Source of the DNA: Phycisphaerales bacterium
GTDB taxonomy: Bacteria > Planctomycetota > Phycisphaerae > WQYP01
NCBI GenBank assembly: GCA_009781185.1
Contig: WQYP01000003.1
Coordinates: forward strand, 7,219-71,218
Reading direction: 5' to 3'
DNA: 64,000 nucleotides
This document shows positions 5,362 to 56,555 of this stretch, one piece after another; position 1 is the stretch's first letter, and each line of letters starts with the position of its first letter. Under the pieces are notes generated by a model. The model was given only the letters and a program-made list of their open reading frames with translations, was not told where the DNA came from and searched no databases. The position numbers and the translations under genes are program-made.

Positions 5362-5383
5362 CCTTGCGTGGAAACGCAAGGCT
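5359..5383 (+). repeat. Stop-codon-embedded stem-loop tagccttgcg-tggaaa-cgcaaggct; second copy at 12735-12764.
   Basis: Perfect 9-12-bp stems, each starting with the stop codon of the upstream gene. No U-tract. Confidence 0.7.
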
Positions 5384-5508
5384 GCGAACGCCAGAGACCC
5401 TCATGGAACGCATGTGTTCGACACGCAGGAGGCGTTAAGCCTCGCGTGTCCCACACAAGGCTATTGAAATAGGGCAGAACCGGCGGCAACGTTGAATCAG
5501 GTGAAACT

Positions 5509-9159: not shown

Positions 9160-9369
9160 CGCGGGCGTCTCGCCCTCGTGTCATCAGAGCCGCGACCGCA
9201 AGGTCGCCTCGCGATTATCAGAGCTGCGAGCGTAAGCTCGCCTCCTACGCCCGAAGGGCGTCAACATACGTAGCCGGGGGCAACGCCCCCGGTGAACATA
9301 CCCCCACAGACGTCATGCCCTGAAAGGGCACGACATCTTGTGATACCCATAACGAAACGGAACCATGGC
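9160..9369 (+). repeat. Array of five or more short GC hairpins with GNRA/tri-loops between the large coiled-coil gene and the next gene.
   Basis: gcgacc-GCAA-ggtcgc; gcgagc-GTAA-gctcgc; cgccc-gaa-gggcg; ccgggggc-aac-gcccccgg; tgccct-gaa-agggca. The first two units begin with cagagccgcga, like the CDS-inserted family. Confidence 0.55.
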
Positions 9370-16093: not shown

Positions 16094-16162
16094 GAAGAAG
16101 CCAGAAGTTTTGAATAAGCCACAAACTCGCAACCTTCTGGCTTCTGGCTTCTTCCTCTTTTT
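16094..16162 (+). terminator. Rho-independent terminator hairpin after the BY-kinase gene, built from an AGCCAGA heptamer array.
   Basis: gaagaagccagaag …(loop)… cttctggcttctggcttcttc, followed by ctcttttt. Confidence 0.6.
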
Positions 16163-16203
16163 GGTTTGACTTCAGGGGGCTGGAACTGCTTCAATAGCGG
16201 AGC

Positions 16204-17367: not shown

Positions 17368-17401
17368 AAGTATAAAAGTTAAAAGTTAAAAGCAGGAATA
17401 T

Positions 17402-18412: not shown

Positions 18413-18506
18413 CAAGGAGCACCACGTGGCAACGCGGTGGTGATTGGGAATGCAAGGACAAACCTCCGCGTTACCACGCGGTGCTCCTTGTCACTTTGTC
18501 ATCTTG
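18413..18506. terminator. Long imperfect inverted repeat (~25-bp stem) between convergent genes; candidate bidirectional terminator. Flanked by gacaagg direct repeats that extend into both stop codons.
   Basis: caaggagcaccacgtggcaacgcggtgg … ccgcgttaccacgcggtgctccttg. Direct repeats gtgacaaggtgacaagg on one side and gtcactttgtcatcttgtcac on the other. Confidence 0.5.
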
Positions 18507-20807: not shown

Positions 20808-21084
20808 GGATGGGGTCCTTTCGCTGATGTAGTGTAGCATGCGCCCCCGCCACCCCGCAAAGCGGGGTCGCTACCTGCATGTCGTGCGGGTGCATCCGCC
20901 AATAGTGGCAATTCCGAAAAAATGTCCGTAGCGACCCCGCTTTGCGGGGTAGCGGTGGGGGAAAATATTGGATACGCCCGGAATTGCCACTCATTCAGGA
21001 TGCACCCATGTCGTGCTAAACCCACGCGGCCTAGACCCACTCCCTCGAAAGCTCTAAGATATCCGTCTGAAAGGATTCTTAGCC

Positions 21085-22683: not shown

Positions 22684-22723
22684 GAAATCTGGTGCATCTG
22701 GTACGTCTACGCCGACCGTGCGA

Positions 22724-23077
22724 TCAAGGCGCAATTGGCGGATCCGGGAGCGTTTTTTGTTCGAGGGCCGCCAGGCGAAGTTCCAAGTCGTCCAGCTTTT
22801 TGAGTGTGCTATGCGCCACAGATGCGACGGCCATTCCGGTATGCAAGAAACCTGCGATCGTGAGGAACGCTCCGCATCCGAGGCTTAAAAGGGTCACAAT
22901 CGTGTCGTCGTTCACTTCTTTCAATCGGAATACGACGATAGCGCCACAAACTGCTCCGCCGATCCAGAAGAAAAGCATGGGGACAAGAATCGTAGCGCTC
23001 CCCGTATTGCGCCAGATTCCTGCAAAGGTGATGAGGTCATCCCGATCCAGACGATTTTTCCAATACCAGCCGTTCAT
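22724..23077 (-). CDS. Small membrane protein (117 aa), hypothetical; 15 nt downstream of asnB.
   Basis: Two hydrophobic helices. Same strand as, and immediately after, asnB. No recognisable family. Confidence 0.35.
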   Translation of the reverse strand: MNGWYWKNRLDRDDLITFAGIWRNTGSATILVPMLFFWIGGAVCGAIVVFRLKEVNDDTIVTLLSLGCGAFLTIAGFLHTGMAVASVAHSTLKKLDDLELRLAALEQKTLPDPPIAP

Positions 23078-23092
23078 GATTTCCTCTCTGCT

Positions 23093-25117
23093 TTATTCAA
23101 GCGTTGGGGCGAAATGTTGCCAGAAAAGTTCAAGGGTGAGCAGGGCGAAGAGGCGGTGGGTGTGGTCGCGAAGAGCGGTGTGGTGTTCGTGGAGGAGGCG
23201 TTCGATGATTTGGGGTTGTAGATAGTTTCTCGTAAAGGATTGTTGCGAGAGGAGCAGATCGGTGAGCGGTGCGCGCAGGTCGCCCCCCCCCTGATTGTTA
23301 AACCATTGGCCGATGGGGACGCCGAAGCCTTTTTTGCGGCGGTGGAGGACGGCGGGTGGGAGATCGTTTGCGAAGAGTTGGCGGAGCGGGGCCTTTCCTT
23401 GGCCGTTGTGGATGAGAGCGGAATCGGGAAAGGAGTTGCCCAGTTCGACGATGCGGTGGTCGAGGAAGGGGGAGCGGACTTCGAGGGCGTCGCCGCTTGC
23501 TGAGCACATGGAGGCGGAGTCAACTTTCCAGAGAACGTCGCCGGGGAGATATTCGGATTGGTCGCGGAGCATGGCGAGGCGGAGCGGAGAAACATCATCC
23601 GGAAGACCGTACTCTTCGGGAAGCGGGAAGTAATCCAGCACCGGCTCGCCCATAAGTTCTTCGATAAATGGGCGTGGGAAAATGTCGACGAGGCGAGTGT
23701 ATTGTTCGGAGGGAATCTTGGATTTGGCGGCGGCGGCGAGGCGGCGGTAACGCTCTCTTTTGGAAAGAGAGCCCAAAGGGGAGGATTGGGGGAGAAATTT
23801 AACGAGGGGGCGGAAGCGGTTGAGGAGAATCATGGCGCGGTAGCGATCGTAGCCGGCGAAGAGTTCGTCGGCACCGTCGCCGGAGAGAGCGACGGGGGCC
23901 CTCCCCCCTACTTGGCGGGCGGCTCGGGAGAGGTGGTAGGTGGGGAGGATGGAGGAGTCGGCGAAGGGTTGGCCGAGGGATTTTTGCATGAGGAGACTGA
24001 GCGTGGCGAAAACGTCTTGCCTGGCGTGGACGGTGAGTTGGGTGTGGCGGGATTGGATTTTTTGTGCGACGGCCTGGGCGTATGGAGATTCGTCGAAGTC
24101 GGACTCTGTAAAGCCGACGGAGACGGTTTGGATGGGATCGCCGCCGGCTCTTTGGACGGCATCCTGGGCGAGCGTTGCGATGATGGAGGAATCGATGCCG
24201 CCGGAAAGGAAACAGGTGATGGGTGTATCGGCGATGAGTTGCGAGGAAACGGCAAGAGTGAGATTCTCGCGAAGATTTTCGATTTTCGATTTTCGATTTT
24301 CGATTTTTGATGTGGGTGTCCAGTAGCGGTCGCCGTCGAGAAGGTCATTTTGGAGGCGGAGCCAAGCGCCGGGGAGAAGTTGGTTCACGTCGCGGAAGAT
24401 GGTTTGCGGAGCGGGGAAGTAGCCAAGCAGAAGGTAGAGAGCGATTTGTTCTTTGGGGACGCGGCGGGGGACTTCGGGCCAGGCGAGGACGGAGGGGATG
24501 GTGGAGCCGAAGACAAGGCCGTCTTCGAGAATGGCGTAGAAGAGCGGTTTTTGGCCCATGCGATCGCGGGCGAGGAAAAGGGTGTGTTTCTGCCCTCCCC
24601 CTTGTGCCATCGGAGCCGCGACCGTAAGGGAGCGACCCCGCGGTAATGCGTCGGGAGAGCCGGTCGCTCCCTCACGGTCGCGGCTCTGATAGTCTGCGCT
24701 GCGTGTGTCCCAGATGGCGAAGGCGAACATGCCCAAGAGTTTGGTGGGGAGGTCGGTGCCCCACTGCTCCCAGCCGTGGACGAGGACTTCGGTGTCGGAA
24801 TGGTCGGATTTGAAGATATGTCCGTGGGATTGGAGTTCGCGGCGGAGTTGTGCGTGGTTGTAGATTTCGCCGTTGAAGACAACATGGACATTATTGGCTT
24901 CGTTAGCCATGGGTTGGTGGCCGCCGGAGCGGTCGATGATGGCGAGACGGGAATGGAGGAGTGCGGCGTGATTGTCGGCGAAGAGGCCGTGGCCGTCGGG
25001 ACCGCGATGAGCGATGGCTTGCGACATAGCCATGAGCGGTGCGAAACTGGAGGGGCGGGGGCCCCAGGGGGGCGGGCGGGAGGAGAGGTATTTGATGATG
25101 CCGGCGATGCCGCACAT
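23093..25117 (-). CDS. asnB: Asparagine synthase (glutamine-hydrolysing).
   Basis: N-terminal MCGIAGI Ntn-amidotransferase start; PP-loop FLSGGIDSS; 674 aa. Carries two in-frame foreign inserts: the palindromic element at 24608-24690 and the gattttc heptamer array at 24274-24309. Confidence 0.85.
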   Translation of the reverse strand: MCGIAGIIKYLSSRPPPWGPRPSSFAPLMAMSQAIAHRGPDGHGLFADNHAALLHSRLAIIDRSGGHQPMANEANNVHVVFNGEIYNHAQLRRELQSHGHIFKSDHSDTEVLVHGWEQWGTDLPTKLLGMFAFAIWDTRSADYQSRDREGATGSPDALPRGRSLTVAAPMAQGGGQKHTLFLARDRMGQKPLFYAILEDGLVFGSTIPSVLAWPEVPRRVPKEQIALYLLLGYFPAPQTIFRDVNQLLPGAWLRLQNDLLDGDRYWTPTSKIENRKSKIENLRENLTLAVSSQLIADTPITCFLSGGIDSSIIATLAQDAVQRAGGDPIQTVSVGFTESDFDESPYAQAVAQKIQSRHTQLTVHARQDVFATLSLLMQKSLGQPFADSSILPTYHLSRAARQVGGRAPVALSGDGADELFAGYDRYRAMILLNRFRPLVKFLPQSSPLGSLSKRERYRRLAAAAKSKIPSEQYTRLVDIFPRPFIEELMGEPVLDYFPLPEEYGLPDDVSPLRLAMLRDQSEYLPGDVLWKVDSASMCSASGDALEVRSPFLDHRIVELGNSFPDSALIHNGQGKAPLRQLFANDLPPAVLHRRKKGFGVPIGQWFNNQGGGDLRAPLTDLLLSQQSFTRNYLQPQIIERLLHEHHTALRDHTHRLFALLTLELFWQHFAPTLE
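24608..24690. repeat. Palindromic element (family 'cagagccgcgaccgtNagggagcgac') inserted in-frame in asnB.
   Basis: ggagccgcgaccgtaagggagcgacc…ggtcgctccctcacggtcgcggctct. Translated on the minus strand as …QSRDREGATG…GRSLTVAA…. Confidence 0.8.
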
Positions 25118-25128
25118 GAGAGACTTCT

Positions 25129-26295
25129 TTAGTGTTTATAAGCATTGAAGCGTTGGGGATCAACATGCCAGCCGAGGCCGGGCGTGGTGGGAATTTGGAG
25201 TTTGCCGTTTTTGATTTGGAAATCGAAAATGTCGGTGCGGAGGGGGTTGGGGTTGATGTCCCATTCGCAAAGAGGCGGTGCGTTGGCGGCGGAACAGCCG
25301 GAGGCGAGGTGGAGAGAGGCGGCCTGGCCCAGAGCGCTGCCGAGGTAGTGGGGGATGACTTTTTTGTTCCGGCCTTTGGCGAGCGGGATCAGATCGACGG
25401 CTGCGATCGGAGGGCAATTCTTCGTGATGTCGGGTTGCAGAATGTCGACGGGGAAGTCGGCGAGTTGGGCGAGGGTTTGGGGATCGCCACAGTTCACCCA
25501 GACGTTTTCGCCGGCGGAGAGCGGGACGCTACGGAGCCACCCCCCTTTTTGCAGAGCGGGATAGTGCGATTCTTCGTCGGCGCGGAGGGCCTCTTCGAGC
25601 CAGCGAACGTTGTGGTCCTTGAGGATCGGAAGCCACTCGGCGGCTTCGGCGGCGGTCCAGTGGCGATTGGTGTCAATCGCTATCTGAGCCCCCCCCCCCC
25701 TATCACCACCGAAATGCTTTTCGAGGGTTTTGATGTTGGCGAGGTCTTCGGCGCCGAAGCCGACCTTGAGCTTGAAGATGCGAACGCCACGTTCGAGCAT
25801 CGCGTCGATCTCTTTCATCGGCAGCGGCGAGTTGATGCCGGAGGCGTAGATTTCGACCTCTTTCGCTGGGTTTGCGGGGGGGGAGAACCAGAGCTGATTC
25901 ATGGGGACGTTTTTGGTTTTCGCTTCGAGGTCCCACAGGGCGAGTTCGACGGCACAGAGTTCCGCGATGAGCGAACCGACATTGTTGGCCTGAATGGCAG
26001 GACCGACGAAGGCATTGAACATTTGCATCATGAACTGGCGGACCCCTCCCCTCTCCTCCACCACCTCGCGCCCTTGCAGGTAGGGAAAGTAAGCCTGCTG
26101 AAAAGCGGCGAGGCGTTCGAAAGGAGACCAGACAGGGAAATTGATCCACGATTCTCCCCAGCCCCACCGGTCACCGTCATCTCGAAGCCCGATGAAAATA
26201 GCATGACGCTGCCCCATGACGCCCCAGGAAGTCTTAATGACGCGATCGGAGGCGGCACGAAGATGGTGAATGGCGGTGTTGGTGATGGTGAACAT
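25129..26295 (-). CDS. Enolase-superfamily enzyme (mandelate racemase/muconate lactonizing enzyme family; dipeptide-epimerase/OSBS-like).
   Basis: KLKVG, …IAIDTNRHWT…, WLEEAL and SAGENV motifs consistent with MR/MLE metal ligands. The ORF extends to 26367, but the start at MFTITN avoids overlap with rnd. Confidence 0.55.
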   Translation of the reverse strand: MFTITNTAIHHLRAASDRVIKTSWGVMGQRHAIFIGLRDDGDRWGWGESWINFPVWSPFERLAAFQQAYFPYLQGREVVEERGGVRQFMMQMFNAFVGPAIQANNVGSLIAELCAVELALWDLEAKTKNVPMNQLWFSPPANPAKEVEIYASGINSPLPMKEIDAMLERGVRIFKLKVGFGAEDLANIKTLEKHFGGDRGGGAQIAIDTNRHWTAAEAAEWLPILKDHNVRWLEEALRADEESHYPALQKGGWLRSVPLSAGENVWVNCGDPQTLAQLADFPVDILQPDITKNCPPIAAVDLIPLAKGRNKKVIPHYLGSALGQAASLHLASGCSAANAPPLCEWDINPNPLRTDIFDFQIKNGKLQIPTTPGLGWHVDPQRFNAYKH

Positions 26296-26329
26296 GAGCC
26301 CCTGCGAAAAAATCAAAAATCGAAGATTC

Positions 26330-27559
26330 TTATGATTGAGTGAAATCTGCGTGGAGTGCGTTTTCATTCATAGCAAGATGGATGTGGAGGTTTTGGTGGA
26401 TGAAGTGGAGGAGTTTTTTGCCGAGGCATTCGTGGCGCCACCCGGTCATGAGAGGGTGTTTATCAGGGCTCTTTTTCTTGTGGAGGAGGCGGGCGAGGGA
26501 GAGGATTTCGTTCTGGCAGGTGACGAGGGCCGGGGTCACGCTCTGGCCAAGACAGATCACCTGTGCGGCGACCCAAAGCGTTTCGGCAAGACGTTTGACC
26601 TCGGCGGAGTCTTCGGGAGGAATGTGGATTGAGGGGCGCTGGTCTTTCGGAACGGCACGGCCGCGAGCGATGGCCTCGACGAATTCGCTGCCGTGGGCTT
26701 CGATGATCTGCCTGGGCACATCGCGAATGGCGGCAAGAGCGGATTCCTTCTCAGGCATGCGAACGGCCATGTCGAGAAGAGGATCGTCCTTGAGAATGTT
26801 CTTCGACGGAAGATCTCGATCGCACGCGAGCTGTTCACGAAGAGCGGCAAGCTCGCGGAGCACGGAAAGCTGCACCGGACTCAGTGAACCAGCACCACGG
26901 ACTTTGACGAACATCTTGCGAGCGTCGACAGGATTGGCCGCTTCCGTGCACAGATCGCGGCAGGCGGCGGTCATCCAGTCGAGATGCCCGAGAGCATCGA
27001 TACGCCTGAACATTTCACTGTGGATAGCGGGCAGGTAGCGGACGTCGTCGATGGCGTAAGCGAACTGTGCCTGGCTCAAGGGGCGGCGATTCCAGGCAGA
27101 GTAAGTGTGTGCCTTGGCCAAGGTGACGCCTGAGAAATGTTCGACGACTCGCCAGAGGGCGGTGGGGTAGGCGATGCCGAGCATGCCGGCGCCGATCTGG
27201 GTGTCGAAAATATTCTGCGGAACGTGGTGGCCACCTTGCAGCCAGGTGATCTCGAGATCCTGGTCGCCAGCGTGGCAGATTTTCTCGATGGAAGCATCGG
27301 CTAAAATATCCCAGAGCGGTTGTACCCCCCCTACCGACTTGGCCAAAGCGAGAGGGTCGATCAACTCAACGCGCTCGGCGGTGGCGACCTGCACGAGGCA
27401 GAGGATGGGGTGATAGGTATTTTCGCCGATGAACTCGGTGTCGAAGGCGAAACATCTGGCAGCGCGGAGATGATCACAGACGGCAGCAAGGGCCTCAGGA
27501 GTGCTGACCAGATCATGAGGAACGGCAGGAAGATGTCCCGTTTTCGACATGCCCGCCAT
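26330..27559 (-). CDS. rnd: Ribonuclease D (DEDDy 3'-5' exonuclease + HRDC).
   Basis: …FAFDTEFIGENTYHPILCLVQVA… exonuclease motif I; …HAGDQDLEI…; C-terminal HRDC-like region. Start at MAGMSK (the ORF is open to 27742). Confidence 0.7.
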   Translation of the reverse strand: MAGMSKTGHLPAVPHDLVSTPEALAAVCDHLRAARCFAFDTEFIGENTYHPILCLVQVATAERVELIDPLALAKSVGGVQPLWDILADASIEKICHAGDQDLEITWLQGGHHVPQNIFDTQIGAGMLGIAYPTALWRVVEHFSGVTLAKAHTYSAWNRRPLSQAQFAYAIDDVRYLPAIHSEMFRRIDALGHLDWMTAACRDLCTEAANPVDARKMFVKVRGAGSLSPVQLSVLRELAALREQLACDRDLPSKNILKDDPLLDMAVRMPEKESALAAIRDVPRQIIEAHGSEFVEAIARGRAVPKDQRPSIHIPPEDSAEVKRLAETLWVAAQVICLGQSVTPALVTCQNEILSLARLLHKKKSPDKHPLMTGWRHECLGKKLLHFIHQNLHIHLAMNENALHADFTQS

Positions 27560-27890
27560 AGTACGGCGAAACGATCCAATTGACGAGTTGCCCACCCCTT
27601 TTTCCTCCCTCCGAAAAAAGCCCCGGGATTGCAATCCCGGGGCTTCGTTCAGAGTTGATCTTCTCGTTGGTTTGAACCGACGCGTCACGCAGCCTTCGCT
27701 TGTAATCAAAAAATCCCTGATACGACACCTTCTCCCGTTCACAGAATGCTTTGATGCTCAAACCGCTTGCCGCCTGCCTGCCAAAGAGTTCTTTCCAATG
27801 TGCACGTCGTTGGGATGGCGTCATTCGTGACGATTGTGCTATTGACGCTTGTGTCGCTGGCGAATCTTGCGCTAGGACCGATTGGGTCAT
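27513..27890 (-). pseudogene. IS-transposase N-terminal HTH fragment (IS3/IS66-type OrfA-like). Remnant: the 3' part is out of context and overlaps rnd.
   Basis: …TPSQRRAHWKELFGRQAASGLSIKAFCEREKVSYQGFFDYKRRL… resembles transposase OrfA HTH. There is no full transposase gene downstream. Confidence 0.35.
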
Positions 27891-28051
27891 GGAAACCTCC
27901 GTTCAAAACGGAAGCATCGTCACAAAATTCTCGCCGAACGAGAAGACGGGTTTCACCGGACGCTTACGAAATGTAACGCCAATATTGACGAATGCAAATG
28001 AAATTTCAGTAGATTCGCGCTTGGGACAGCTTTGTGCCACCATCAACTCTT

Positions 28052-28690
28052 TTATTGGGGTTTGATAGCGGCGATGGCATTAAAAGTGCGGCCTTCGGCG
28101 ATGTACTTACGCTCGAAATTGCTGCCGACGAGGGAACGGGGGGGGGAGCCGGGCGGGAGTGGGAGTGGGGAATCGAAGGGGACGATTTGCAGGTCGCTTT
28201 GGGCGCTGAGCATCTGCTGCATGTGGGCGAAATAGTCGGCGTGATCGGTGACGAGGCGTAACTTGCCGCCGGGGATGAGAATGCGATGAACTTCCTTGAG
28301 GAAGGGGAGCTGAATGAGGCGTCGTTTGTGGTGGCGAGTCTTGGGCCAGGGGTCGGGGAAGTAGATGTGGAGGGCGGTCAGAGAGGCTGCGGGAACGTGG
28401 CAGCGGATCCACCAGAATGCCTCGGCTTTCACGAGACGCGCGTTTTCCATCTTGTGGCGGCGAAGACGATCGGCGGCAAAATCGGCGTAGGCGCTGGCGT
28501 ATTCGATGCCGACGAAGTTGGACTGCGGCATGGCACCCGCGATGGCCAGCAGAAAAGTGCCCTTGCCGGAGCCGATCTCCAACTCGACGGGATGATCGTT
28601 GGCGAAGATTTCACGCCAGGCAATGGTGCCGACCTCGTCGGGAATCTCGAGGAGGAAATGCTGAGGATCAAGGTTGGGTCGTAGCGGCAT
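28052..28690 (-). CDS. trmB: tRNA (guanine46-N7)-methyltransferase.
   Basis: …VELEIGSGKGTFLLAIA… SAM-binding motif, …IYFPDPWPK…, …FERKY… . Start at MPLRPN. A heptamer array lies immediately 5' of the start. Confidence 0.8.
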   Translation of the reverse strand: MPLRPNLDPQHFLLEIPDEVGTIAWREIFANDHPVELEIGSGKGTFLLAIAGAMPQSNFVGIEYASAYADFAADRLRRHKMENARLVKAEAFWWIRCHVPAASLTALHIYFPDPWPKTRHHKRRLIQLPFLKEVHRILIPGGKLRLVTDHADYFAHMQQMLSAQSDLQIVPFDSPLPLPPGSPPRSLVGSNFERKYIAEGRTFNAIAAIKPQ

Positions 28691-29108
28691 AGTCGATTTT
28701 CGATTTTTGATTTTCAATTGTAGGGCAAAAATAAAAATGCCGCCACGGGGCTGCCGAGTGGGGCGCGACAGCTTGCGTACAGGCAAAGTGGGAACCCGTA
28801 CGGTGGCGGCGAGGATCGAAACCTCACAAGTCAAGCCAATAGACGCAAAACTTGTGAAAATAATTGACTTGTCACTGCTCGATCAATCCAATGACTTGAC
28901 GATGACCTTAAAAGCTACCCGCAGAAAATCGCTTCGTCAACCGTTTCTTGGTCAATTCTTAATCACTTCTTCAGGGGAATCGGTGAGGGCAATCATTGGA
29001 TGTCCGCCCCCGGCTCTGCCGAGGGCTCGCACGCCGGGAATGCTCCTTCCGCCATCACATCACCGGCATAACCCAATGGCACTCAATTGGGCGCGGTTCC
29101 GGTGAGCG

Positions 29109-31865
29109 TTATGACCGACGTCGCCGGGCGAGCAGGCCCACCGCCCCCAGCCCCAGCAGCGCCAGACTCGTCGGTTCCGGCACCAGCGCGAACTGACCGT
29201 TCTGGCTCAGCACCGCCCAGCTCCAACCCACTCCCTGACCGTCAATGTAATAGCCCCAACTGCCCACTGGCACGTCGCTCAAGCCGCCATTGTCGTTCAA
29301 GAATTCCTCGAGGCTCAAGTTCTCGTGGAATTCGCTGGGATCTCCGACGTACCCCCAGTTATCGAAGCTGACCATGTAGGGGAGTTCGCCTATCGCAAGA
29401 TTGATATCACCGAGATTGAAGGAGATTTCCAGGGCGTATTTGCCACCGAAAGCCTCGGCGGCACCGGTGACGTTGACAACGTCGGAGATCAGTGCCTTCT
29501 CGGTGGTGCTGAAGATGCCACTGGGATCGCCGATGTTGCCAGGGTAAACTTCGTCGGTCATGCGAGCTCGCCATTCCATGGTGACTTGCCCGTCATCGCT
29601 GGCGTTGCCGATGATGGTGGCCGTGGTGCCGACCATGGCAGCGCCTTGGTCGCTGCCGGTCGTTCCCGCAACGGTGGAGGAGAAGCTGTTCAATCCGGCT
29701 TTGACCGCCTTGACGTCCGGGGTGCCGAAGGTGTGACGATCATTGCTGTTATCGGCGAGGATCGGACCGCCGGGACCGCCGCCGCCGTTGACCTCGTAAG
29801 CGAAGAGGATTTGCCCATTCCCATTGTCTGTGATGCTGTAGTTTTTGAAGTCAATGCCGCTCCAGCTTGTGCCGCCAAGAACGATGGAGCCGGGGGTGCC
29901 GCCATAAGTCGTATCCACAAAGCCCGACACGTTGCTGTAGGTGAACAGCGTGAAAGAGCCTTCCGCTCCCGGCGCGAACGCGGAAGTGCCGCCCACCACG
30001 TTCAGGGAGACGGTACCGGGGAAGGCCAGCGTGCCGCCGACGACTGTAATGCTGCTGGGAGTTGCCGTGTTAAAGGCATAATCAAGAGTAGCGCCATCGC
30101 TGAGCGTCAACCCGCCAGCGCTGTTGAATGCCGCATTGTTCAGGGCGCTGAAAGTCAGCGTGCCCGCCGGAGCGAGGGTACCGTTGACGCTGAAGGGGGA
30201 GCCCGTCTGCCCATAGACCTTACCGGAGCCAGCGAGAGTCTGGCTGGAGGGAGTCGCAAAGTTGGCGATGCTGGAAACATCGAAGACCGCTCCACTGCTG
30301 ATGTCGATCTTCTCCGATTTTGCAATGGTATTGATGCCTGTGATCTTCAGTATGCCTTCCTGGATGACAGTCGCACCGGTGTAGGCGTTGGCAGAATGGC
30401 TAAGGGTCAGGGTACCGGTGCCGACTTTGATCAGTGACGCCGTGGTATCCAGCGTGATTGGCGTACCCGAATTAACGACAGTCGAACCGATGTTGGCGAT
30501 TCTTCCCGCGAAGCTGGAGTTGCCGGGTTGGCCGGGATTGCCGATGGTAAGCGTTTGCCCATCGCCGATTTCGATCAAATCACGAATATCGTTGCCGTAC
30601 CCGGATGTTGTCGGTGTTAGCTGATAGATGTGCCCGGAGCTTGGTTGTCCATCGCCATCTTTGAGCACGATATGACAGTTCGCCGTGAAAGTGGTTGGTC
30701 CAGTGCCAAGCCCTTCGCCGTAGAACTGGAGAACTAACCAAGGAGTAGAGCCATTATTGGTAGTCATCGTGACGCCGCCGGTGAAATTGGGATTATTTGC
30801 TCTTGTAATAACAAGCGACTTTCCCGCGGAGATTTTTCCGTCGCCGGTGATCTCGCCGGAGAAGGTGAAGCTTGCCGGTGCGGAGGAGGAGGCGTGCGAG
30901 AGAGTGAGGGTAGTTCCGCTGGCGATACTGACATCGCCAGACAATGTAACGTTTCCTATGGATGCCGCGTTGATCACCTTGTTGGTCCCGCCGCCCGCCA
31001 CGACAATCGGAGTGGTGAACGTGTAATCGGTGTTGCCACTACCACTTATGTAAATCCGAGCCTCACTGCTGTCCGCCCCCAGGTAAATGGCCGTCGCATT
31101 GGGGAGCCGCATGGTGGTGTTGCTGCCGTTTTCAAATGTGAGAATACCACTCATGACATGGATCGTCCCGGTGAAATCCGGGCTGGCCACACTATCAAAC
31201 CGCAAAGCGGTGTTGCTGTTTTGGGTGATATCGGCAACGTTGGCGCCGATGACACCTCTTACAGAGGTGCCAGCAGAGCCCGTCGTCGTCAGGCCGACAC
31301 CGTTACTGTTAATAGCACTGGCGGAGACAGCCGTGCCGGAGTTGGTGATGGTATTTGCCGGATCGTACGACGCGAAGTTAATGCCGCCGGAGAGAATGAG
31401 GGAATTGGCTGAATTGTTGGCGATCGTCAAAGCGGTGTCCTGGATGGAAATGGGAGCACTGATGATGTCGGCAAAGCTGCCCACGACATGGGTGATGTAA
31501 GTGCCACTGCCGCCGCCGTTAAGGGTTAAGTTATTCGCTGCACTGCCACCGAGCGTGAAGGCGGCAGTGGAGGACGAATCGATGATGAGCGTTTTCGCGA
31601 TGCCCGGGGAGCTGATGGTGGCGCCTGTCGTGAAAGTGACATCATCGCCGACGTCGGGGTAACTGAGGGTGGGTGACCCGCCGGTGAGAGCCCAGTTATT
31701 TGTGTCATTCCACGCGCCCGCGGCTCCCCCTTGCCAAGTGAAAGTTGCCGCCGAAGCCGCCTGCAGTGCCATTGCCGCGGCAATGGCGGCCACGCTTAGG
31801 ATGCCGTACTTTTTGAACGAGCGACTGCCGAAGGTTTTGTGACTGGCCATTTTGATGATCTCCAA
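29109..31865 (-). CDS. PEP-CTERM-anchored secreted protein with autotransporter-like beta-helix repeats (918 aa).
   Basis: Signal peptide; many …GTLTLS…/…GGTL… beta-strand repeats. C-terminus …ALVPEPTSLALLGLGAVGLLARRRRS is the canonical PEP-CTERM sorting signal (VPEP, TM helix, Arg cluster). Confidence 0.75.
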   Translation of the reverse strand: MEIIKMASHKTFGSRSFKKYGILSVAAIAAAMALQAASAATFTWQGGAAGAWNDTNNWALTGGSPTLSYPDVGDDVTFTTGATISSPGIAKTLIIDSSSTAAFTLGGSAANNLTLNGGGSGTYITHVVGSFADIISAPISIQDTALTIANNSANSLILSGGINFASYDPANTITNSGTAVSASAINSNGVGLTTTGSAGTSVRGVIGANVADITQNSNTALRFDSVASPDFTGTIHVMSGILTFENGSNTTMRLPNATAIYLGADSSEARIYISGSGNTDYTFTTPIVVAGGGTNKVINAASIGNVTLSGDVSIASGTTLTLSHASSSAPASFTFSGEITGDGKISAGKSLVITRANNPNFTGGVTMTTNNGSTPWLVLQFYGEGLGTGPTTFTANCHIVLKDGDGQPSSGHIYQLTPTTSGYGNDIRDLIEIGDGQTLTIGNPGQPGNSSFAGRIANIGSTVVNSGTPITLDTTASLIKVGTGTLTLSHSANAYTGATVIQEGILKITGINTIAKSEKIDISSGAVFDVSSIANFATPSSQTLAGSGKVYGQTGSPFSVNGTLAPAGTLTFSALNNAAFNSAGGLTLSDGATLDYAFNTATPSSITVVGGTLAFPGTVSLNVVGGTSAFAPGAEGSFTLFTYSNVSGFVDTTYGGTPGSIVLGGTSWSGIDFKNYSITDNGNGQILFAYEVNGGGGPGGPILADNSNDRHTFGTPDVKAVKAGLNSFSSTVAGTTGSDQGAAMVGTTATIIGNASDDGQVTMEWRARMTDEVYPGNIGDPSGIFSTTEKALISDVVNVTGAAEAFGGKYALEISFNLGDINLAIGELPYMVSFDNWGYVGDPSEFHENLSLEEFLNDNGGLSDVPVGSWGYYIDGQGVGWSWAVLSQNGQFALVPEPTSLALLGLGAVGLLARRRRS

Positions 31866-32380
31866 AGAGGACTCTCACTTCAATTCAGCTTCCCAAGCGG
31901 GAAGCAAAAACGCCAAAGGGAACGACAAGCCACCGAAAACTCGCTATTGTCAGCGAGATTTCGAACGTTGCTCTCGTTCCCTCTTTTGTCTTGAACGTCC
32001 CGAACTCAGTTCATGAGCTGTCCGGGCTGATGATGTAACATGGGCATCCTGCCCGCAAAACGCTCCCTGACGGTCGCGTTTCGGATTGGTTGCCGCGTCT
32101 CGAATTCGTGGGGAAAAATCAAATAATTAATGTTAAACTGGGGGGGGGGGGCAAGTTGGATAATTTGACCAAGGAAGTCTGACAATATTTTTCGCGATTC
32201 ATCGCGGCCGGAGAAAAACGCCGAGAAAATGTCGCAATTTTGCGTCATCATTGAGCTTACGCTCACCCTTGCCAACCAATACCCTCGCGCAACCGCCACA
32301 CGACAGCACGCGACATGTTCCCTATACCACAGATTTCGGGAAAAACAAGAATATTTTATTTTTTTTGCATCGTAAGCTCA

Positions 32381-36320: not shown

Positions 36321-36731
36321 ATGCAGAGAAACCTTTCGTCTCACGCGGTCGGTCTTTTCCGCCTGTTACGGAACATCCGCAGCAAGCCGAAGTCACCCGC
36401 GCCGATCGCACGGCGGGCGCCCGCTGAGCGAGTGCCGATAGGCGCTCTGAAGACCCAGAGGGGAAACGAGTAAGTATAGCGGAGAGAGAGAGTTGGGGAA
36501 AGCGAGATGAAAAGAGCGGACTCGTAAAATTTGTAAAATGGGTGAAAGTCGTAAAATGCGTGGAGAGGGGGCGGAGCACCGCATGGTAATGCGGTGGTTG
36601 AATACCATGAGGCGGCCAAACCACCGCATTACCCTGCGGTACTCCCAAAGATGCAATCTTACGATACGGCTCTGATGATTTGCGGGACAATGCGTGGACG
36701 GCTATGGTTGCGTATATGAGGTGAATGGCTT

Positions 36732-38672: not shown

Positions 38673-39881
38673 ATGGATAAGGATGTTGTGGTGACGAACT
38701 TGGATGTACGGCCGTATGTGGAGACGCTCTTTGCAAGGGCGTTGGCGGAGGAGGCGTCGGATATTCATGTGGAGCCGACGGCAGATGGGGCGGAAGTGCG
38801 GTTGCGGGTGGATGGGCTGCTTCAGACGATTGATCGGATGACGGGGGAAATGGGGCGGAGTACGGTGTTGCGGCTGATGGTACTGGCACAGTTGTTGACG
38901 TATCGATTGGACATTCCGCAGGAAGGGCGGGTGACGTGGGAGGTGGGGCATCGGAGCCGCGACCGTGAGGGAGCGACGGGTGCCGATTCTGAGTCGCACG
39001 GTCGCTCCCTGACGGTCGCGGCTCTGAACTTCCCTGAGGAAATGGGAGGGAAGCGGATTGATTGTCGGTTAGCGATTATGCCCACGGCGCATGGGCTGCG
39101 GGCGGTGGTGCGGATGCCGGCGGATTTGGTGCAGCCCAAGTCGCTGGGAAGTTTGGCGTTGCCGGCGGCGGTGATGGGGGCGTTGGAGCGGTTTGCGAAG
39201 CACGACCAGGGAATGCTGCTGGTGACCGGACCGGCGGGGTCGGGCAAGACGACGACGATTTATGCATTGCTGGAGCATATCGCGGCGGGAACGGGGGGGG
39301 AGGCGAGCGGGTTGTCGATTATCAGTTTGGAGGATCCGGTGGAGCGGCTGTTGCCGGGGGTGACGCAGATCGAAGTGACGCCGCATGGGCAGTTGACGTA
39401 TGAGCGGGCGCTCAAGTCGATCTTGCGGCAGGATCCGCAGGTGCTGATGCTCGGGGAGATTCGGGATGTGGCGACGGCGTCGATCGCGGTGCAGGCGGCG
39501 TTGTCGGGACATCGGTTGATTGCGACGCTGCACGCCGGTGAACCGGCGATGGCGCTGGCGCGGCTGCTGGAGATGGGTATTGAACCTTATCAGTTGACCA
39601 GTAGTTTGTTTGGGATTTTGAGTCAGCGGCTGTTACGGAAGCGATCGTCAGCCTCCGCAAGCCGTTATCGTGGGCGGGTGCCGGTGGCGGAGTTCGCACA
39701 GCTTGATACGGACGTACGTGCGGCGGTCTTGCAACGAGCAGATGCAGATTCTTTGAAAAATAGATTTGCCCAACAATCCGGCTATGTTACGATGCGAACT
39801 GTAGCAGAAGATTTGGTGGCACGCGGTGTGACGGACGAGGAGGAAGTGCAACGGGTTCTGGGTTTAGTACAGCGATCGTGA
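38673..39881 (+). CDS. GspE/PilB-like secretion ATPase (short form lacking the N1 domain).
   Basis: Walker A GPAGSGKTTT; Asp/His boxes; …EGRV…RIDCRLAIMPTAHGLRAVVRM. The palindromic element is inserted in-frame at 38950-39028. Confidence 0.7.
   Translation: MDKDVVVTNLDVRPYVETLFARALAEEASDIHVEPTADGAEVRLRVDGLLQTIDRMTGEMGRSTVLRLMVLAQLLTYRLDIPQEGRVTWEVGHRSRDREGATGADSESHGRSLTVAALNFPEEMGGKRIDCRLAIMPTAHGLRAVVRMPADLVQPKSLGSLALPAAVMGALERFAKHDQGMLLVTGPAGSGKTTTIYALLEHIAAGTGGEASGLSIISLEDPVERLLPGVTQIEVTPHGQLTYERALKSILRQDPQVLMLGEIRDVATASIAVQAALSGHRLIATLHAGEPAMALARLLEMGIEPYQLTSSLFGILSQRLLRKRSSASASRYRGRVPVAEFAQLDTDVRAAVLQRADADSLKNRFAQQSGYVTMRTVAEDLVARGVTDEEEVQRVLGLVQRS
38950..39028. repeat. Palindromic element of the same family, in-frame in the gspE-like gene.
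   Basis: ggagccgcgaccgtgagggagcgac gggtgccgattctgagtcgcac ggtcgctccctgacggtcgcggctct, encoding …HRSRDREGATG…GRSLTVAA…. Confidence 0.8.
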
Positions 39882-41185: not shown

Positions 41186-42634
41186 TTGGTCCAGGACAGC
41201 CAAACGCCTCTGGAATACCAGACGCCAGTGCGGGTTGTGGCGTCCGACTTGCCGCTTTGGCAGCAGGCGCTGATGCTGCTGTTCGTGTGGGCACCGCTGG
41301 GGCTTGTTTTCGTGGCGATCGTGGGGGTGGTGATGGGAATGTCGTGCAGTTATATGGTGGGGCAGGTCGGGATGCCGATCGGGGTGCTGTTCTGTGCTTA
41401 CGCGATTTACCGGATGCAGCGTGCGCGGCGACGACGGCGGGCCATGGCGATCTTGTCATACGTGGAAACAGCGACGCGTCTCAATTTGTCGTTGAATGAA
41501 TACCTGCTGGCGGCGGAATTGAGCGAGCGCGGTGCGACGCGGGAAAGGTTAAGCGACCTGCGGCGACGGTTCATGAGCGGGGCCTCAATCTCCACAGCGT
41601 TATACGAAGCGGTGCCGGAGATGCCCGCTTCGATCATCGCCACCGCACGCGTCGGCGAATCGCTCGGACAGGTACAACCCACATTGCGGCGACTGGTCAA
41701 CGAGGTCGCCAGACCCACCCTTCCGCCCAATGAACGCATGCCGTTTTACTGGTTTTACGGCATCGGCTTGTGCGTGGCGGTCTTTAACCTCGCCGCATGG
41801 CTCATGGTGTACATCATGCCAAAGTTCAAGGAGATCTTCCGCGACTTCAGCTCCCGCGGCACCGGCGTGACCCTTCCACCGGCGACGGCAAACTTGATCG
41901 TTTTTTACGATCGCATGGGGGACATGGGAGTGGTGTTCTTAGTGATCGAGGCCGTGGTATTCCTGGGACTTGTCGGATGGCTGCTGGAGCGGGCGTTCAC
42001 GTTGCGGCGTGAATCGCAACGGCGTTTGGCGCTGATCGACAAAATGCTCTGGAACTTGCCGGTGCTGGGACGGCTGAATCGGGCAAGATCGATGAGCGAC
42101 ATTTGCAACGTGCTGGCGGAAAGCACGCGTGCAGGCATACCGCTGCCGCAGGCGCTGGAGCGTGCCGAGGATCTGAACATCAACAACGAAGCGAAGCGTC
42201 AGGTGAAGTTGTGGCAACAGGGCGTGACGTCCGGTCAATCGCCGGCGAAAGCGGCACAGGCGGCGAAAATGCCGGAACTGCTCGTCGGACTCATCAATCC
42301 CGCACAATCACAAAGCGGGCATGACGATCAGAGCCGCGACCGTGAAGGAGCGACAGGTGCTATGGAGGAGACGCTCAAGCGTGAACTCCGGGGTCGCTCC
42401 CTGACGGTCGCGGCTCAGAACCTGCATGCCGTCACCAACGTGTTTGAATTCCTGGCACGCTATTACCGCGGACAGTTCTCGCGGCTGATGATCACGCTGC
42501 AAGCCGCAAGCGAGCCGCTCCTGGTCATCGCCCTGGGCATCATGGTGGCGTGGATGACCATGACGGTGATCTCGCCGGTCGCGGCGCTGGTGCAAGCGAT
42601 CATCAAGGTATACTGGGGAGGGGACGTCTTATGA
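41186..42634 (+). CDS. Second GspF/PilC-like platform protein paralog.
   Basis: T2SSF-like repeats. The palindromic element is inserted in-frame at 42328-42418. Confidence 0.55.
   Translation: MVQDSQTPLEYQTPVRVVASDLPLWQQALMLLFVWAPLGLVFVAIVGVVMGMSCSYMVGQVGMPIGVLFCAYAIYRMQRARRRRRAMAILSYVETATRLNLSLNEYLLAAELSERGATRERLSDLRRRFMSGASISTALYEAVPEMPASIIATARVGESLGQVQPTLRRLVNEVARPTLPPNERMPFYWFYGIGLCVAVFNLAAWLMVYIMPKFKEIFRDFSSRGTGVTLPPATANLIVFYDRMGDMGVVFLVIEAVVFLGLVGWLLERAFTLRRESQRRLALIDKMLWNLPVLGRLNRARSMSDICNVLAESTRAGIPLPQALERAEDLNINNEAKRQVKLWQQGVTSGQSPAKAAQAAKMPELLVGLINPAQSQSGHDDQSRDREGATGAMEETLKRELRGRSLTVAAQNLHAVTNVFEFLARYYRGQFSRLMITLQAASEPLLVIALGIMVAWMTMTVISPVAALVQAIIKVYWGGDVL
42328..42418. repeat. 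Palindromic element of the same family, in-frame in the second gspF-like gene.
   Basis: agagccgcgaccgtgaaggagcgac …35-nt loop… ggtcgctccctgacggtcgcggctca, encoding …QSRDREGATG…GRSLTVAA…. Confidence 0.8.
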
Positions 42635-43032
42635 CGATGCGAAATGAGAGACGAGCGGTGCGGCGGAGCCGCGGGTTTTTCGCCATGGAAGCGGCCTGGT
42701 CGCTGGGGCTGGCGCTGCTGCTGTTGATGATCATGACCGTGATGGTCATGCAGCAGAATAAGGCGGAAATGAAGTTATCACTGATTCGCAGCGCCTCACG
42801 GGCGACGGAAACGGCACTGCTGGAATTGAAGGCGGGCAAGCCTTTGCCTGCGGGCTTTCAACTCGAAAAACTGCCGGATAAGGCGCCGCAAGGCTATGCA
42901 TGGGTTCGCGTGACCGGGCAATCCAACGGCAACGAGCGAACGGAAAAAGTATACCGTGAACGATGCTCGCTGGTGGGACTGACACCTTCCGAGCCGCGAC
43001 CGTCAGGGAGCGACCCCGGAGGTGCGCGATGA
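42631..43032 (+). CDS. Small membrane protein in the pilus/secretion cluster; possible minor pseudopilin or assembly component.
   Basis: ATGA overlap with the upstream gene. RGFFAMEAAWSLGLALLLL hydrophobic N-terminus. Its C-terminal 30 nt are a half palindromic element. Confidence 0.35.
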   Translation: MTMRNERRAVRRSRGFFAMEAAWSLGLALLLLMIMTVMVMQQNKAEMKLSLIRSASRATETALLELKAGKPLPAGFQLEKLPDKAPQGYAWVRVTGQSNGNERTEKVYRERCSLVGLTPSEPRPSGSDPGGAR

Positions 43033-43514
43033 AAACGACCGCGAAATATCGCCAAGCACACGGCTACATTCTCACGGAAATGCTCATCGCGGTGGCGATT
43101 ATGGGAGTACTGGCAGTGCTGGTGGGCGATCTGTTCATGATCTCGTTCGGATCGATGCGGAAAGCGAGTTCGCGTGATAATCTTCTGTATCGCATGGACG
43201 CGGCAATCGGATCGCTGCGACGCGACACATGGGCGGCAGAAAAAATCAGCATGGACGCTGCAAACCACGTCGATCTGAAGATGCCGTCAGGGGAGCAGGT
43301 ATCGTGGCGGATGTCGGAGAAGGGCGTTCTCTCTCGCACGCTGCAGCGGAAAGGCGAGGCGGCACAGAATCAGACATGGCCGGAATTGCCGGAGATACGG
43401 TTTTTGCTTTCGTCGGACGGAGCGCTGCTGGAACTCAGCGTGCGTTCCGCCCCCGGCCAGGACGAATCGCTCACGCTGGTAAGTCAATCGATGCTGCAGG
43501 GGAGGAAGCGATGA
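43029..43514 (+). CDS. Type IV pilin/pseudopilin-like protein.
   Basis: Prepilin N-terminus …AHGYILTEMLIAVAIMGVLAV (G-Y/F-T-L-x-E motif). Confidence 0.6.
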   Translation: MKTTAKYRQAHGYILTEMLIAVAIMGVLAVLVGDLFMISFGSMRKASSRDNLLYRMDAAIGSLRRDTWAAEKISMDAANHVDLKMPSGEQVSWRMSEKGVLSRTLQRKGEAAQNQTWPELPEIRFLLSSDGALLELSVRSAPGQDESLTLVSQSMLQGRKR

Positions 43515-43951
43515 AGATCTGGTACCGCGACCGTCAGGGATCGCGTGGATTCACGCTGATTGCGGTGATTTTCATGTTCATCGTGATAGCCGCAGCGGTG
43601 GCGGCGATGACGGTCCTCTTCGCAACGGAAAATCGTCGGACGATCGGAACGCATTCAGGCACACAACTCCGGCAATTGCTCCTCGCCAGTGCGCCAGCAG
43701 CGGAAGAGGAACTGAAGTTGCACGGATCTGCCGCAAGAGAATGGACGCTTCCCACTCCCCTACCGGAAGCAAAGGTAACACTGACGTTCAAGCCCGTCAG
43801 CGAAGGAAAAGCAGACGTCCGCATCGACGTCAAAATGGGCAGATCGTCCGCATCGCAGACGCTTCGCTACATCCATAGCGGCCAGTCCTGGGCGCTGGAA
43901 TCCGCAACGTTGCACGCCGACGGCTCCCGCATCAGCACTTCGAACCCATGA
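43511..43951 (+). CDS. Pseudopilin-like protein.
   Basis: …SRGFTLIAVIFMFIVIAAAV prepilin-like N-terminus; 4-bp overlap with the upstream gene. Confidence 0.5.
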   Translation: MKIWYRDRQGSRGFTLIAVIFMFIVIAAAVAAMTVLFATENRRTIGTHSGTQLRQLLLASAPAAEEELKLHGSAAREWTLPTPLPEAKVTLTFKPVSEGKADVRIDVKMGRSSASQTLRYIHSGQSWALESATLHADGSRISTSNP

Positions 43952-43992: not shown

Positions 43993-44150
43993 CTGGGCAA
44001 GGGGTGTGATCATCTTTTGTGGCAAATGGCGAAAATGGTTGAAAATCAGAGCCGCGAGCGTAAGCTCGCGCAGTGGTGATCACAATCGCACGGCGCGAGC
44101 TTACGCTCGCGGCTCTGATTTGCCACAAAAGATGGCCACACCCTGGGCAA
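43993..44150. repeat. Large nested palindrome (~65-bp arms); MITE/REP-like intergenic element.
   Basis: ctgggcaagg…catcttttgtggcaaat…cagagccgcgagcgtaagctcgcg // cgcgagcttacgctcgcggctctgatttgccacaaaagatgg…cttgcccag. The core shares the cagagccgcga start with the CDS-inserted palindrome family. Confidence 0.7.
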
Positions 44151-47346: not shown

Positions 47347-48108
47347 TTAATAGATCAGCGGCAGCCTCCTGGTTTTTTTCTCGTTGGCTTCGAGGATGGC
47401 GGGGGTAGGTGGGGTGAGTTCGATGGCGGTGATGTAGGTGATGTCTTTGAGCGTTTCGTCGAGTTTGCCGTGGTATTTTTTGTAGAGGGCGAGGGTGCGA
47501 CGTTTAGGGGGGGAGGCAGAGTCGGCAGTATAGATCGGGGCGACGACGGTACCTTCGATGGTTTGGTCGTTGAGGAGAGTGAATTGGTAGGCGAGTTCGA
47601 CGTTGGGATATTTTTTGCCGGAGTAGATTTTCTGGTCGGAGCCTTCCTTGAGCCAGCGCCAATCGTCTTCCATGGTTTGTGAGAGGACTTTCACGTCGAT
47701 GCGTTTGATCAGGGAGAGATCGATGTCGCGGTAGGTTTTGGTTTCCTCCAGCCAGACGCGGAAGGGGGTTTCGAGGGTGGTCCAGATTTGGCCTTCGACG
47801 GTGATGCCGTTGCTGAGTTTGACGGTGCCGGTGCGGGCTCCGGCGGGAGGCTTTTCGGTGAGGGTTCCGAGCGCGTCGGTTACGCCTTGGGTGGTGGGGG
47901 CGGTCGCTTCGGCAGGGGCTGTGGCAACGGGCGTGGTGGCGATATCGTTAACGTCGTCGTCGGCGAGGGTGAGTGAATTAGCCACAGACAGACACAGACA
48001 GACACGGACAAAATTCGAAATTCGAAATTCGAAATTCGAATTTTGTCCGTGTCTGTCTGTGGCTAATTTAGGTCGTCCGCAGGTTATAGTAGGGTGATTC
48101 TTGAGCAT
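47347..48108 (-). CDS. Hypothetical protein; start uncertain. The only in-frame ATG (48108) places a 90-bp palindrome inside the N-terminal coding region.
   Basis: High-GC3 coding signal from ~47975 down to 47347 with no ATG/GTG/TTG before the palindrome. ATG at 48108, or GTG at 47985 inside the palindrome, are the only candidates. The C-terminal 200 aa have no recognised domain. Confidence 0.35.
   Translation of the reverse strand: MLKNHPTITCGRPKLATDRHGQNSNFEFRISNFVRVCLCLSVANSLTLADDDVNDIATTPVATAPAEATAPTTQGVTDALGTLTEKPPAGARTGTVKLSNGITVEGQIWTTLETPFRVWLEETKTYRDIDLSLIKRIDVKVLSQTMEDDWRWLKEGSDQKIYSGKKYPNVELAYQFTLLNDQTIEGTVVAPIYTADSASPPKRRTLALYKKYHGKLDETLKDITYITAIELTPPTPAILEANEKKTRRLPLIY
47976..48068. 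repeat. Palindromic element: GACA/TGTC-rich arms flanking a gaaattc x4 heptamer array.
   Basis: attagccacagacagacacagacagacacggacaaa attcgaaattcgaaattcgaaattcgaa ttttgtccgtgtctgtctgtggctaat. Its right arm is identical over 24 nt to the element in the sufS-sufT spacer. Confidence 0.75.
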
Positions 48109-56327: not shown

Positions 56328-56555
56328 TCAATCCGAGACGCGACCGTCAGGAAGCGTTTTTTCGAACCCGTGATCCGCGAAGCACGGGTCTGCGAATTAC
56401 GCAGACCCGTGGCACCCAAAAACTCTACCCCGGCCACCCGCCTGCGGTTGCCCAACCACATATCGTGGTCACAAACAGAACCATCAGAGCCGCGACCGTC
56501 AGAAAATTTGTCAGCTTCATGTGTTCATTTCCTAAAAGACGGGTGGCCAGAGTAT

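Follow-up and report, generated by a model that had tools for sequence, protein, structure and literature searches.

In-frame inverted pairs of a class 3 REP-like repeat in three conserved genes of a Phycisphaerales genome

Results

Three conserved genes contain an inverted repeat pair in frame

We analysed a 64-kb stretch of a Phycisphaerales metagenome-assembled genome (MAG), referred to here as the window (~50 genes, 58% GC), in which three conserved genes each contain a short palindromic insert built from two inverted arms around a loop. The arms match a published repetitive extragenic palindromic (REP)-like sequence, and we call the inserts doublets. The host genes are an asparagine-synthase-like gene (asnB, 23093–25117, minus strand, 674 aa; Pfam GATase_6/7 and Asn_synthase), a T2SSE-family ATPase gene (GspE/TadA-like, 38673–39881, plus strand, 402 aa; Pfam T2SSE) and the gene for the second T2SSF-family (GspF-like) membrane protein, here GspF2 (41186–42634, plus strand, 482 aa; Pfam T2SSF).

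A search with the 26-nt arm CAGAGCCGCGACCGTNARGGAGCGAC, allowing at most one mismatch, gave seven matches in the window compared with none in 100 dinucleotide-preserving shuffles of it (0 expected). Six of the seven pair up as three inverted pairs, one in each host gene, and the seventh is a solo arm at 42989–43014 on the plus strand. Paired arms are 89–93% complementary and are separated by loops of 23–38 nt. The doublets lie at 24609–24690 in asnB (arms 24611–24636 and 24663–24688, 26-nt loop), at 38950–39028 in the ATPase gene (arms 38952–38977 and 39001–39026, 23-nt loop) and at 42327–42419 in GspF2 (arms 42329–42354 and 42393–42418, 38-nt loop), with lengths, counted with 26-nt arms, of 78, 75 and 90 nt respectively, all of them multiples of three. 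No direct repeats that could represent target-site duplications were seen flanking the three copies. Folded as RNA, the doublets reach −59 to −71 kcal/mol (z −6.6 to −10.3), and the resulting 26–29 bp stem in the mRNA is a plausible substrate for RNase III and might affect expression, in a harmful or an exploited way.

Each host gene resumes beyond its doublet, with the same frame on both sides, and gains 25–30 hydrophilic residues. The doublets translate as QSRDREGATGSPDALPRGRSLTVAAP in AsnB (minus-strand reading), RSRDREGATGADSESHGRSLTVAAL in the ATPase and QSRDREGATGAMEETLKRELRGRSLTVAAQ in GspF2, and an example of a tryptic peptide containing SRDREGATG is EGATGADSESHGR. All three translated open reading frames (ORFs) share the reading SRDREGATG-(loop)-GRSLTVAA, even though asnB is on the minus strand and the other two hosts are on the plus strand. 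An initial annotation of this DNA had reported the palindrome in these genes, with the frame kept and a common peptide on either strand, and our searches and translations agree with it on each of these points. Both arms are stop-free in two of three frames, on either strand. These are frame 0, read as QSRDREGA/RSLTVAA, and frame 1, read as RAATVRER/SLPDGRGS, while frame 2 hits TGA or TAA unless the variable base N of the arm is favourable. With two frames open, three copies would agree by chance in about 1 of 4 cases, and the shared frame is weak evidence.

Orthologs lack the inserts, which lie in length-variable or predicted disordered positions

Orthologs were aligned for insert absence, as had been proposed in the initial annotation. 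None of 17 ATPase orthologs (62–82% identity) and none of 14 AsnB orthologs (48–83% identity) has the insert, and the sites fall between conserved blocks as first described, in the ATPase where the stretch from the invariant PQEGR to the RLA block varies in length, and in AsnB between ...FAFA(I/V)WD... and TLFLARDR. On L088, the contig with the closest ATPase ortholog, the locus is syntenic with the window: the ATPase gene, GspF-like 1, GspF-like 2 and then three small genes follow in order, without the ATPase insert or the GspF2 insert. From TW to IDCRL the ATPase has 39 residues in the window versus 14 in L088, an excess of exactly 25 codons or 75 nt, which is the doublet length. For GspF2, the alignment is split into two stretches in most of the 150 best cluster representatives, and the best stretch breaks off near residue 375 of the query, immediately ahead of the insert. 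Nearly all these proteins are 400–450 aa long, compared with 482 aa in the window.

In an AlphaFold2 model of the ATPase (mean predicted local distance difference test score, pLDDT, 81.8), residues 95–117 form a loop with pLDDT <50 between strands 83–90 and 128–138. This gives the insert the loop position that structure prediction had been proposed to look for. An independent ENA assembly (L089) covers window positions 15815–32152 at 99.86% identity, with 14 mismatches over ~16 kb, and encodes an identical AsnB, insert included, which excludes an assembly artefact for the asnB copy. The L089 contig stops exactly at an intergenic run of ~12 G (window positions 32140–32152), a hint that the tract varies in length or marks a break in the assembly.

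Insertions of other origin were also seen in these protein families. Compared with most orthologs, the AsnB-like protein carries two small lineage-specific insertions that bear no relation to the repeat: SASGD ahead of ALEVR, and QGGG within NNQGGGDLR. One ATPase ortholog (P0063) carries an unrelated insert, AGTLRVPFARIPEDARSDATGHGTRSVPATL, in its C-terminal half (alignment columns ~379–443); it resembles an in-frame copy of another palindromic repeat, and such insertions may be common in the ATPase family.

The arm is a class 3 REP-like unit found in several phyla

A single arm folds as ......(((..((....))..))).. at −9 kcal/mol. It begins with a 5' foot, CnGA, followed by a weak hairpin of CCGC-GA-CC, the loop GTNA and GG-GA-GCG(G), with a tandem G.A internal loop. 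The feet of the window arms are CGGA, CAGA, CTGA and CCGA. Across 163 arms from many genomes the four bases upstream are C (82%), n, G (99%) and A (99%), and all arm positions are at least 95% fixed except the free tetraloop N and the last two bases (87% and 80%). Variant arms share the head CAGAGCC and differ in ways that preserve the small hairpin; the variants GCGACC-GCAA-GGTCGC and GCGAGC-GTAA-GCTCGC form perfect stems, whereas the main family, GCGACC-GTNA-GGGAGC, has the tandem G.A mismatch. No GTAG or CGTC tag is conserved at the flanks of the arms, which have the CnGA foot instead. The N bases of paired arms are non-complementary in all three window doublets, which indicates that the conserved unit is the single small hairpin rather than the long inter-arm stem. 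The element had initially been described as two arms around a loop; the inverted pairs are real, but the unit is not a 26-bp stem-loop, as each arm forms a small hairpin of its own with a CnGA foot.

The initial annotation knew of no description of this sequence family, but one exists. Quentin, Siguier, Chandler and Fichant (2018, BMC Genomics 19:475, PMC6006769) defined a small "class 3" of TnpA_Y1 transposases of ~178 aa, with the HUH motif NHVH and Y-x4-Q, in Planctomycetes, Acidobacteria and some Proteobacteria, and counted ~600 REP-like structures of class 3 type in Solibacter usitatus. Table S1 of that paper lists CAGAGCCGCGACCGTTAGGGAGCGTCCCG and CAGAGCCGCGACCGTCAGGGAGCGATCG for Solibacter and CCGAGCCGCGACCGTAAGGGAGCGGA for Legionella pneumophila, with the structure .....((((..((....))..))))., and the class 3 REP-like family is reported there in Solibacter, Legionella and Planctomycetes. 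The window arm agrees with these published units base for base over the conserved 24 nt (e.g. CAGAGCCGCGACCGTCAGGGAGCGATCG, CAGAGCCGCGACCGTCAGGGAGCG). The main texts of the literature, searched for the peptide and for the arm sequence, gave nothing relevant, and the match was found only in the supplementary table.

We scanned the 24-nt core over one genome per species. Among the matches listed, exact copies occur in Phycisphaerae, Planctomycetaceae, Pirellulaceae, Gemmataceae and Botrimarina, in Acidobacteriaceae, Bryobacteraceae, Solibacter, Verrucomicrobiia and Sumerlaeota, and in single Actinomycetes and Desulfobacteraceae MAGs. At loci of other genomes the arms are found solo or as inverted pairs with loops of 16–60 nt. 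The lengths of these pairs are not confined to multiples of three and most lie in intergenic DNA, where any open frames are short or spurious, which fits selection acting on intragenic copies only.

Arms flank class 3 Y1 transposase genes in other genomes

In Phycisphaerae MAG_25 (JABWBH010000002.1, locus L048), a 174-aa segment between arm-bounded element clusters matches Pfam Y1_Tnp (PF01797) at 35 bits, against a cutoff of 23. At least 3025 homologs of this protein were found, in Planctomycetota, Phycisphaerales and Acidobacteriota, many of them with the JGI label "REP element-mobilizing transposase RayT". On three further contigs (L085, L086 and L087) an arm(+) lies ~50–150 nt upstream of a Y1 gene and an arm(−) downstream of it, and the window doublets thus represent the same architecture minus the gene. 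The Y1 proteins found are ~175 aa long and have NHVH and Y-x4-Q (YVALHQ, YVSEQQ, YVLDGQ, YVELGQ), the signatures of class 3. A Y1/HUH transposase was the only gene found between arms, at four loci (the locus in MAG_25 and the three contigs). Strict motifs of REP-associated tyrosine transposases (RAYTs; P[ND]HxH and YxxxNP[KR]) had no match in 653 kb of loci; the motifs of class 3 are different.

Of the best 120 Y1 homologs, 30 have gene calls that run into arm-encoded peptides (RDREGA, RARQEA, PDGRGS), extended by 20–120 residues through stop-free REP arms. As controls, one of 120 ATPase homologs and one of 120 AsnB homologs contained an arm peptide, in each case the window protein itself, and two GspF representatives matched the loosest peptide pattern alone, which was taken as chance. 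Such over-extension is an artefact that runs systematically through the annotation of this transposase family and of small "hypothetical proteins" in these phyla.

Intragenic copies were also observed elsewhere. Within an alaS ORF of 1369 codons in MAG_25 (L048 3692–7801), a longer element bounded by the same arms forms three clusters, and these and a complete class 3 Y1 gene (5318–5839) lie stop-free and in frame within the tRNA-synt_2c domain; the C-terminal domain is in another frame after the third, tandem cluster (~7345–7650), which may reflect a pseudogene or collapse of the assembly. An ATP synthase a subunit gene (ATP-synt_A, 93.6 bits; L105 574–1218, minus strand, JGI metagenome contig Ga0123356_10653439) contains an in-frame 69-nt doublet, DDQSRDREGATDAASHGRSLTVAAP, and the metagenome of this contig also yielded L088, the syntenic contig with empty sites. 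A PMT_2 glycosyltransferase gene in a Planctomycetaceae MAG (L068 1861–3591) reads its doublet in the other open frame, as RAATVRER...SLPCGRDS, and the frame used in the window is thus not obligatory. Long open frames around doublets at four further loci (L065, L117, L093 and L091) were not counted, being spurious high-GC frames or upstream regions.

Arm fragments, variants and other palindromes in the window

Besides the seven full arms, the window holds ~8 variants or remnants. All half-elements, variants and intergenic copies given in the initial annotation were present, and an additional intergenic solo arm, ACGCGACCGTCAGGGAGCG, was found on the minus strand at 32061–32079. The solo arm at 42989–43014 codes for the C-terminal ...EPRPSGSD... 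of ORF 42631–43032 and lies 15 nt upstream of the next start codon; the L088 ortholog of this ORF stops without the arm-derived C-terminus. A remnant on the plus strand, CCGCGACCGTCAGGGATCG (43525–43543), codes for YRDRQGS in the N-terminal leader of a pseudopilin-like ORF (43511–43951), and the L088 ortholog is again without it. Also on the plus strand are a degenerate arm followed by a T run (CCGAGACGCGACCGTCAGGAAGCG, 56333–56356), a truncated arm (CAGAGCCGCGACCGTCAG, 56485–56504) and an intergenic tandem of two direct, related REP hairpins (CAGAGCCGCGACCGCAAGGTCGC and CAGAGCTGCGAGCGTAAGCTCGC, 9183–9242), both with a CAGA foot and each with a perfect 6-bp stem and a GNRA loop. A nested intergenic palindrome at 44002–44143, between the pseudopilin-like cluster and coaE/rho, has as its core (44047–44117) an inverted doublet of the variant CAGAGCCGCGAGCGTAAGCTCGC; its fold reaches z −14.3 and a T-rich run follows it, and the palindrome is a possible terminator.

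Palindromes of other types are present as well. At 20844–21007, a canonical GTAG-type REP pair (GTAGCGACCCCGCTTTGCGGGGT and its inverse, REP at 20844–20958) is interleaved with a second palindrome (20888–20916/20979–21007). The GTAG-type pair belongs to another REP family than the in-frame doublets, so that at least two REP systems are present in the genome. Another intergenic palindromic family, built on GGAGCACCGC(A/G)TGG(T/C)AA(T/C)GCGGTGGT, occurs at 18395–18508 and 36573–36645, the 18395 copy being joined to GACAAGGT repeats, and a near-perfect 90-nt palindrome of CAGACA/GACA and TTCGAAA repeats (95–96% complementary) lies at 47976–48068. An Rfam scan of the whole window at the gathering threshold returned no family. 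Readings of the doublets as integron attC sites, CRISPR repeats, terminators or inteins were dropped, as the doublets are intragenic, are not arrayed, and have no T run and no protein-splicing domain.

Discussion

Probable REP doublets of the class 3 TnpA_Y1 family

The identity and anatomy of the arms, the absence of the inserts from orthologs, their loop position and the linkage of the arms to Y1 genes in other genomes lead us to consider it probable that the elements in the window are REPIN-like doublets of the class 3 TnpA_Y1 family, REPINs being REP doublets that form hairpins. As non-autonomous elements, they would depend on a class 3 Y1 transposase acting in trans and survive in ORFs where they are tolerated. 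Each arm is one REP-like unit of the class 3 TnpA_Y1 (HUH/Y1) family, and two inverted units with a short, fast-evolving spacer form the doublet, the short counterpart of the arm(+)–Y1 gene–arm(−) arrangement. A class 3 Y1 transposase whose gene lies at another place in the genome would most likely copy the doublets in trans, via single-stranded DNA and with cut-and-rejoin chemistry as in IS200/IS605 and REP-associated transposases. Such single-strand chemistry is established for IS200/IS605 TnpA and Escherichia coli TnpAREP. Insertion would occur without target duplication, consistent with the exact 75-nt excess in the ATPase gene. Intragenic copies would mostly be lost, and the survivors would be those with a length of 3n that are stop-free in the host frame and sit in variable surface loops, where they would be neutral.

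Several observations weigh against this interpretation. A tblastn search of the 64-kb window with the Y1 protein from MAG_25 found no copy of the transposase. That protein matches the NCBIfam models IS200 and REP_Tyr_transpos equally and lies below the cutoff of both (32 bits versus 80 for REP_Tyr_transpos). All three full doublets in the window are intragenic, compared with mostly intergenic copies elsewhere, which pure neutrality fails to explain, albeit with n = 3. Filled and empty sites share only ~65% DNA identity and their loops align poorly, so that the exact insertion boundaries are not fixable and the length difference alone is reliable in this comparison. The binding, cutting or moving of REP units by class 3 TnpA_Y1 is a proposed role, drawn by analogy with better-known Y1 enzymes, and PMC6006769 itself calls for experiments.

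Alternative explanations

The intragenic position of all three window doublets raises the possibility that they are kept for a benefit to the host, with an RNA stem that tunes mRNA stability, RNase III processing or ribosome pausing, as has been suggested for intergenic REPs, or with a role for the peptide; a selfish origin would be compatible with this. Besides position, the great stability of the RNA hairpins (−59 to −71 kcal/mol, z down to −10) is in keeping with such a role, as are the arms or remnants in four ORFs of one secretion-type cluster (the ATPase gene, GspF2, 42631–43032 and 43511–43951) and the AsnB insert that is identical in two assemblies differing at 14 positions over 16 kb. 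However, the host genes are functionally unrelated, their orthologs manage without inserts, the spacers vary freely in sequence and length, the insert is predicted to be disordered and the element is mostly intergenic in other genomes, which together make a host benefit unlikely. We regard as more improbable still that the doublets are classical miniature inverted-repeat transposable elements, i.e. deletion derivatives of an insertion sequence with a DDE transposase, the 26-nt arms serving as its terminal inverted repeats. Such elements would be expected to have inverted arms at their ends, an interior that is short and variable, and copies in dispersed places, as seen here, but a target-site duplication was found at none of the three copies and the ATPase excess equals the element length exactly. 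Moreover, the sole gene type between arms, at four loci, is a Y1/HUH transposase, and each arm is a REP-like hairpin with a conserved foot.

Two further explanations have next to no credibility. The occurrence of the same peptide in three proteins could reflect an ancestral or convergent protein feature, with the palindrome incidental, yet the alignments already refute this, as the peptide is absent in every ortholog examined, including those at 82–83% identity. The 89–93% complementarity of the arms, their exact copies in non-coding DNA of several phyla and the different peptides produced where other genes read the element in other frames argue in the same direction. A misjoin induced by the repeat during assembly or binning is conceivable in that the window comes from a MAG and a look-up of the ATPase protein gave no second record. 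Against such an artefact, the same gene continues in the same frame on both sides of each element, and the independent ENA contig, despite its 14 mismatches, has the identical AsnB insert.

Comparison with known repeat systems

REPINs were reportedly described by Bertels and Rainey in 2011 as REP doublets that form hairpins and are mobilised by RAYTs. Like REPINs and bacterial interspersed mosaic elements (BIMEs), for which the REP/TnpAREP system of Ton-Hoang et al. (2012, PMC3333891) serves as comparison, the doublets in the window pair two inverted REP units across a short spacer that is less conserved, the whole forming one long hairpin, and in other genomes the same units flank a Y1 transposase gene to which they are linked. 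Unlike them, they have no GTAG foot, the transposase is of class 3, scoring under the NCBIfam cutoff for RAYTs, rather than of class 2 (TnpAREP/RAYT; Bertels groups 2/3), and the arm sequence is common to several phyla instead of being lineage-specific. The closest relatives are the class 3 REP-like units of Quentin et al., with which the arms share the CnGA foot followed by GCCGCGACCGTNAGGGAGCG, a weak hairpin, the host phyla Planctomycetes and Acidobacteria, dispersed copies and, in other genomes, physical linkage to NHVH/Y-x4-Q Y1 genes. They differ in that the window arm ends in GAC and not in GG/TC, and in that there is no Y1 gene in the window. PMC6006769, in its accessible parts, describes gene-flanking, high-copy units, and does not report in-frame inverted doublets in housekeeping genes or in Phycisphaerae; class 3 doublets inside conserved genes or in Phycisphaerae are likewise not reported in the searchable literature.

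Insertion of REP dimers in frame is itself a known phenomenon. Di Nocera, De Gregorio and Rocco (2013, PMC3733652) described in-frame REP dimers of 20–30 aa in Opitutus terrae (Planctomycetes–Verrucomicrobia–Chlamydiae, or PVC, group), Thauera and R. conorii. The window doublets resemble these intragenic GTAG/CGTC REPs as REP dimers in frame in known genes, but their arms are without either tag and belong to another repeat superfamily in another host lineage. The initial annotation had compared the element to Rickettsia palindromic elements (RPEs), selfish-type palindromes found in frame inside Rickettsia ORFs (Ogata et al. 2000, as cited in PMC3733652). This likeness holds for the effect on the host protein, as in both cases an in-frame palindrome in conserved ORFs adds a peptide segment and the gene is not destroyed. 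The sequences are presumably unrelated, the RPE hosts are AT-rich Rickettsia as against 58% GC in the window, and the longer RPE-1 is without a known transposase, whereas a candidate transposase family is available here. The family in the window is therefore already described, in-frame REP and RPE insertions are already known, and this is not a new kind of element; the most unusual observations are the density in coding sequence in the window and the whole transposase unit that is stop-free inside the alaS ORF of MAG_25.

Implications for Phycisphaerae and for the class 3 family

Our results point to a little-studied class 3 Y1/REP system, hitherto known from one comparative paper, whose activity in Phycisphaerae has sufficed to place in-frame copies in housekeeping and secretion genes. 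The arm peptides SRDREGA, RAATVRER, EPRPSGS, SLPDGRGS and RSLTVAA account for unusual inserts, false small ORFs and overlong transposase calls in MAGs of Planctomycetota and Acidobacteriota, and the AsnB-like, GspE-like, GspF-like and AtpB proteins are natural examples of loops that tolerate insertions of 25–30 residues.

Coding sequence could, in some Phycisphaerae, be a regular niche for class 3 REP doublets and not an accident. We hold this to be doubtful. Three of the ~50 genes in the window have full doublets and two more have arm fragments, but no other class 3 arm-derived peptide was found in ~240 ATPase and AsnB homologs from other genomes. If such a niche were real and the copies expressed, the repeat would continually supply essential proteins with loop insertions, and even a transposase would be translated as part of an aminoacyl-tRNA synthetase, as in the alaS ORF of MAG_25. 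It would then offer a tractable case for studying how REP-type elements and their transposases persist.

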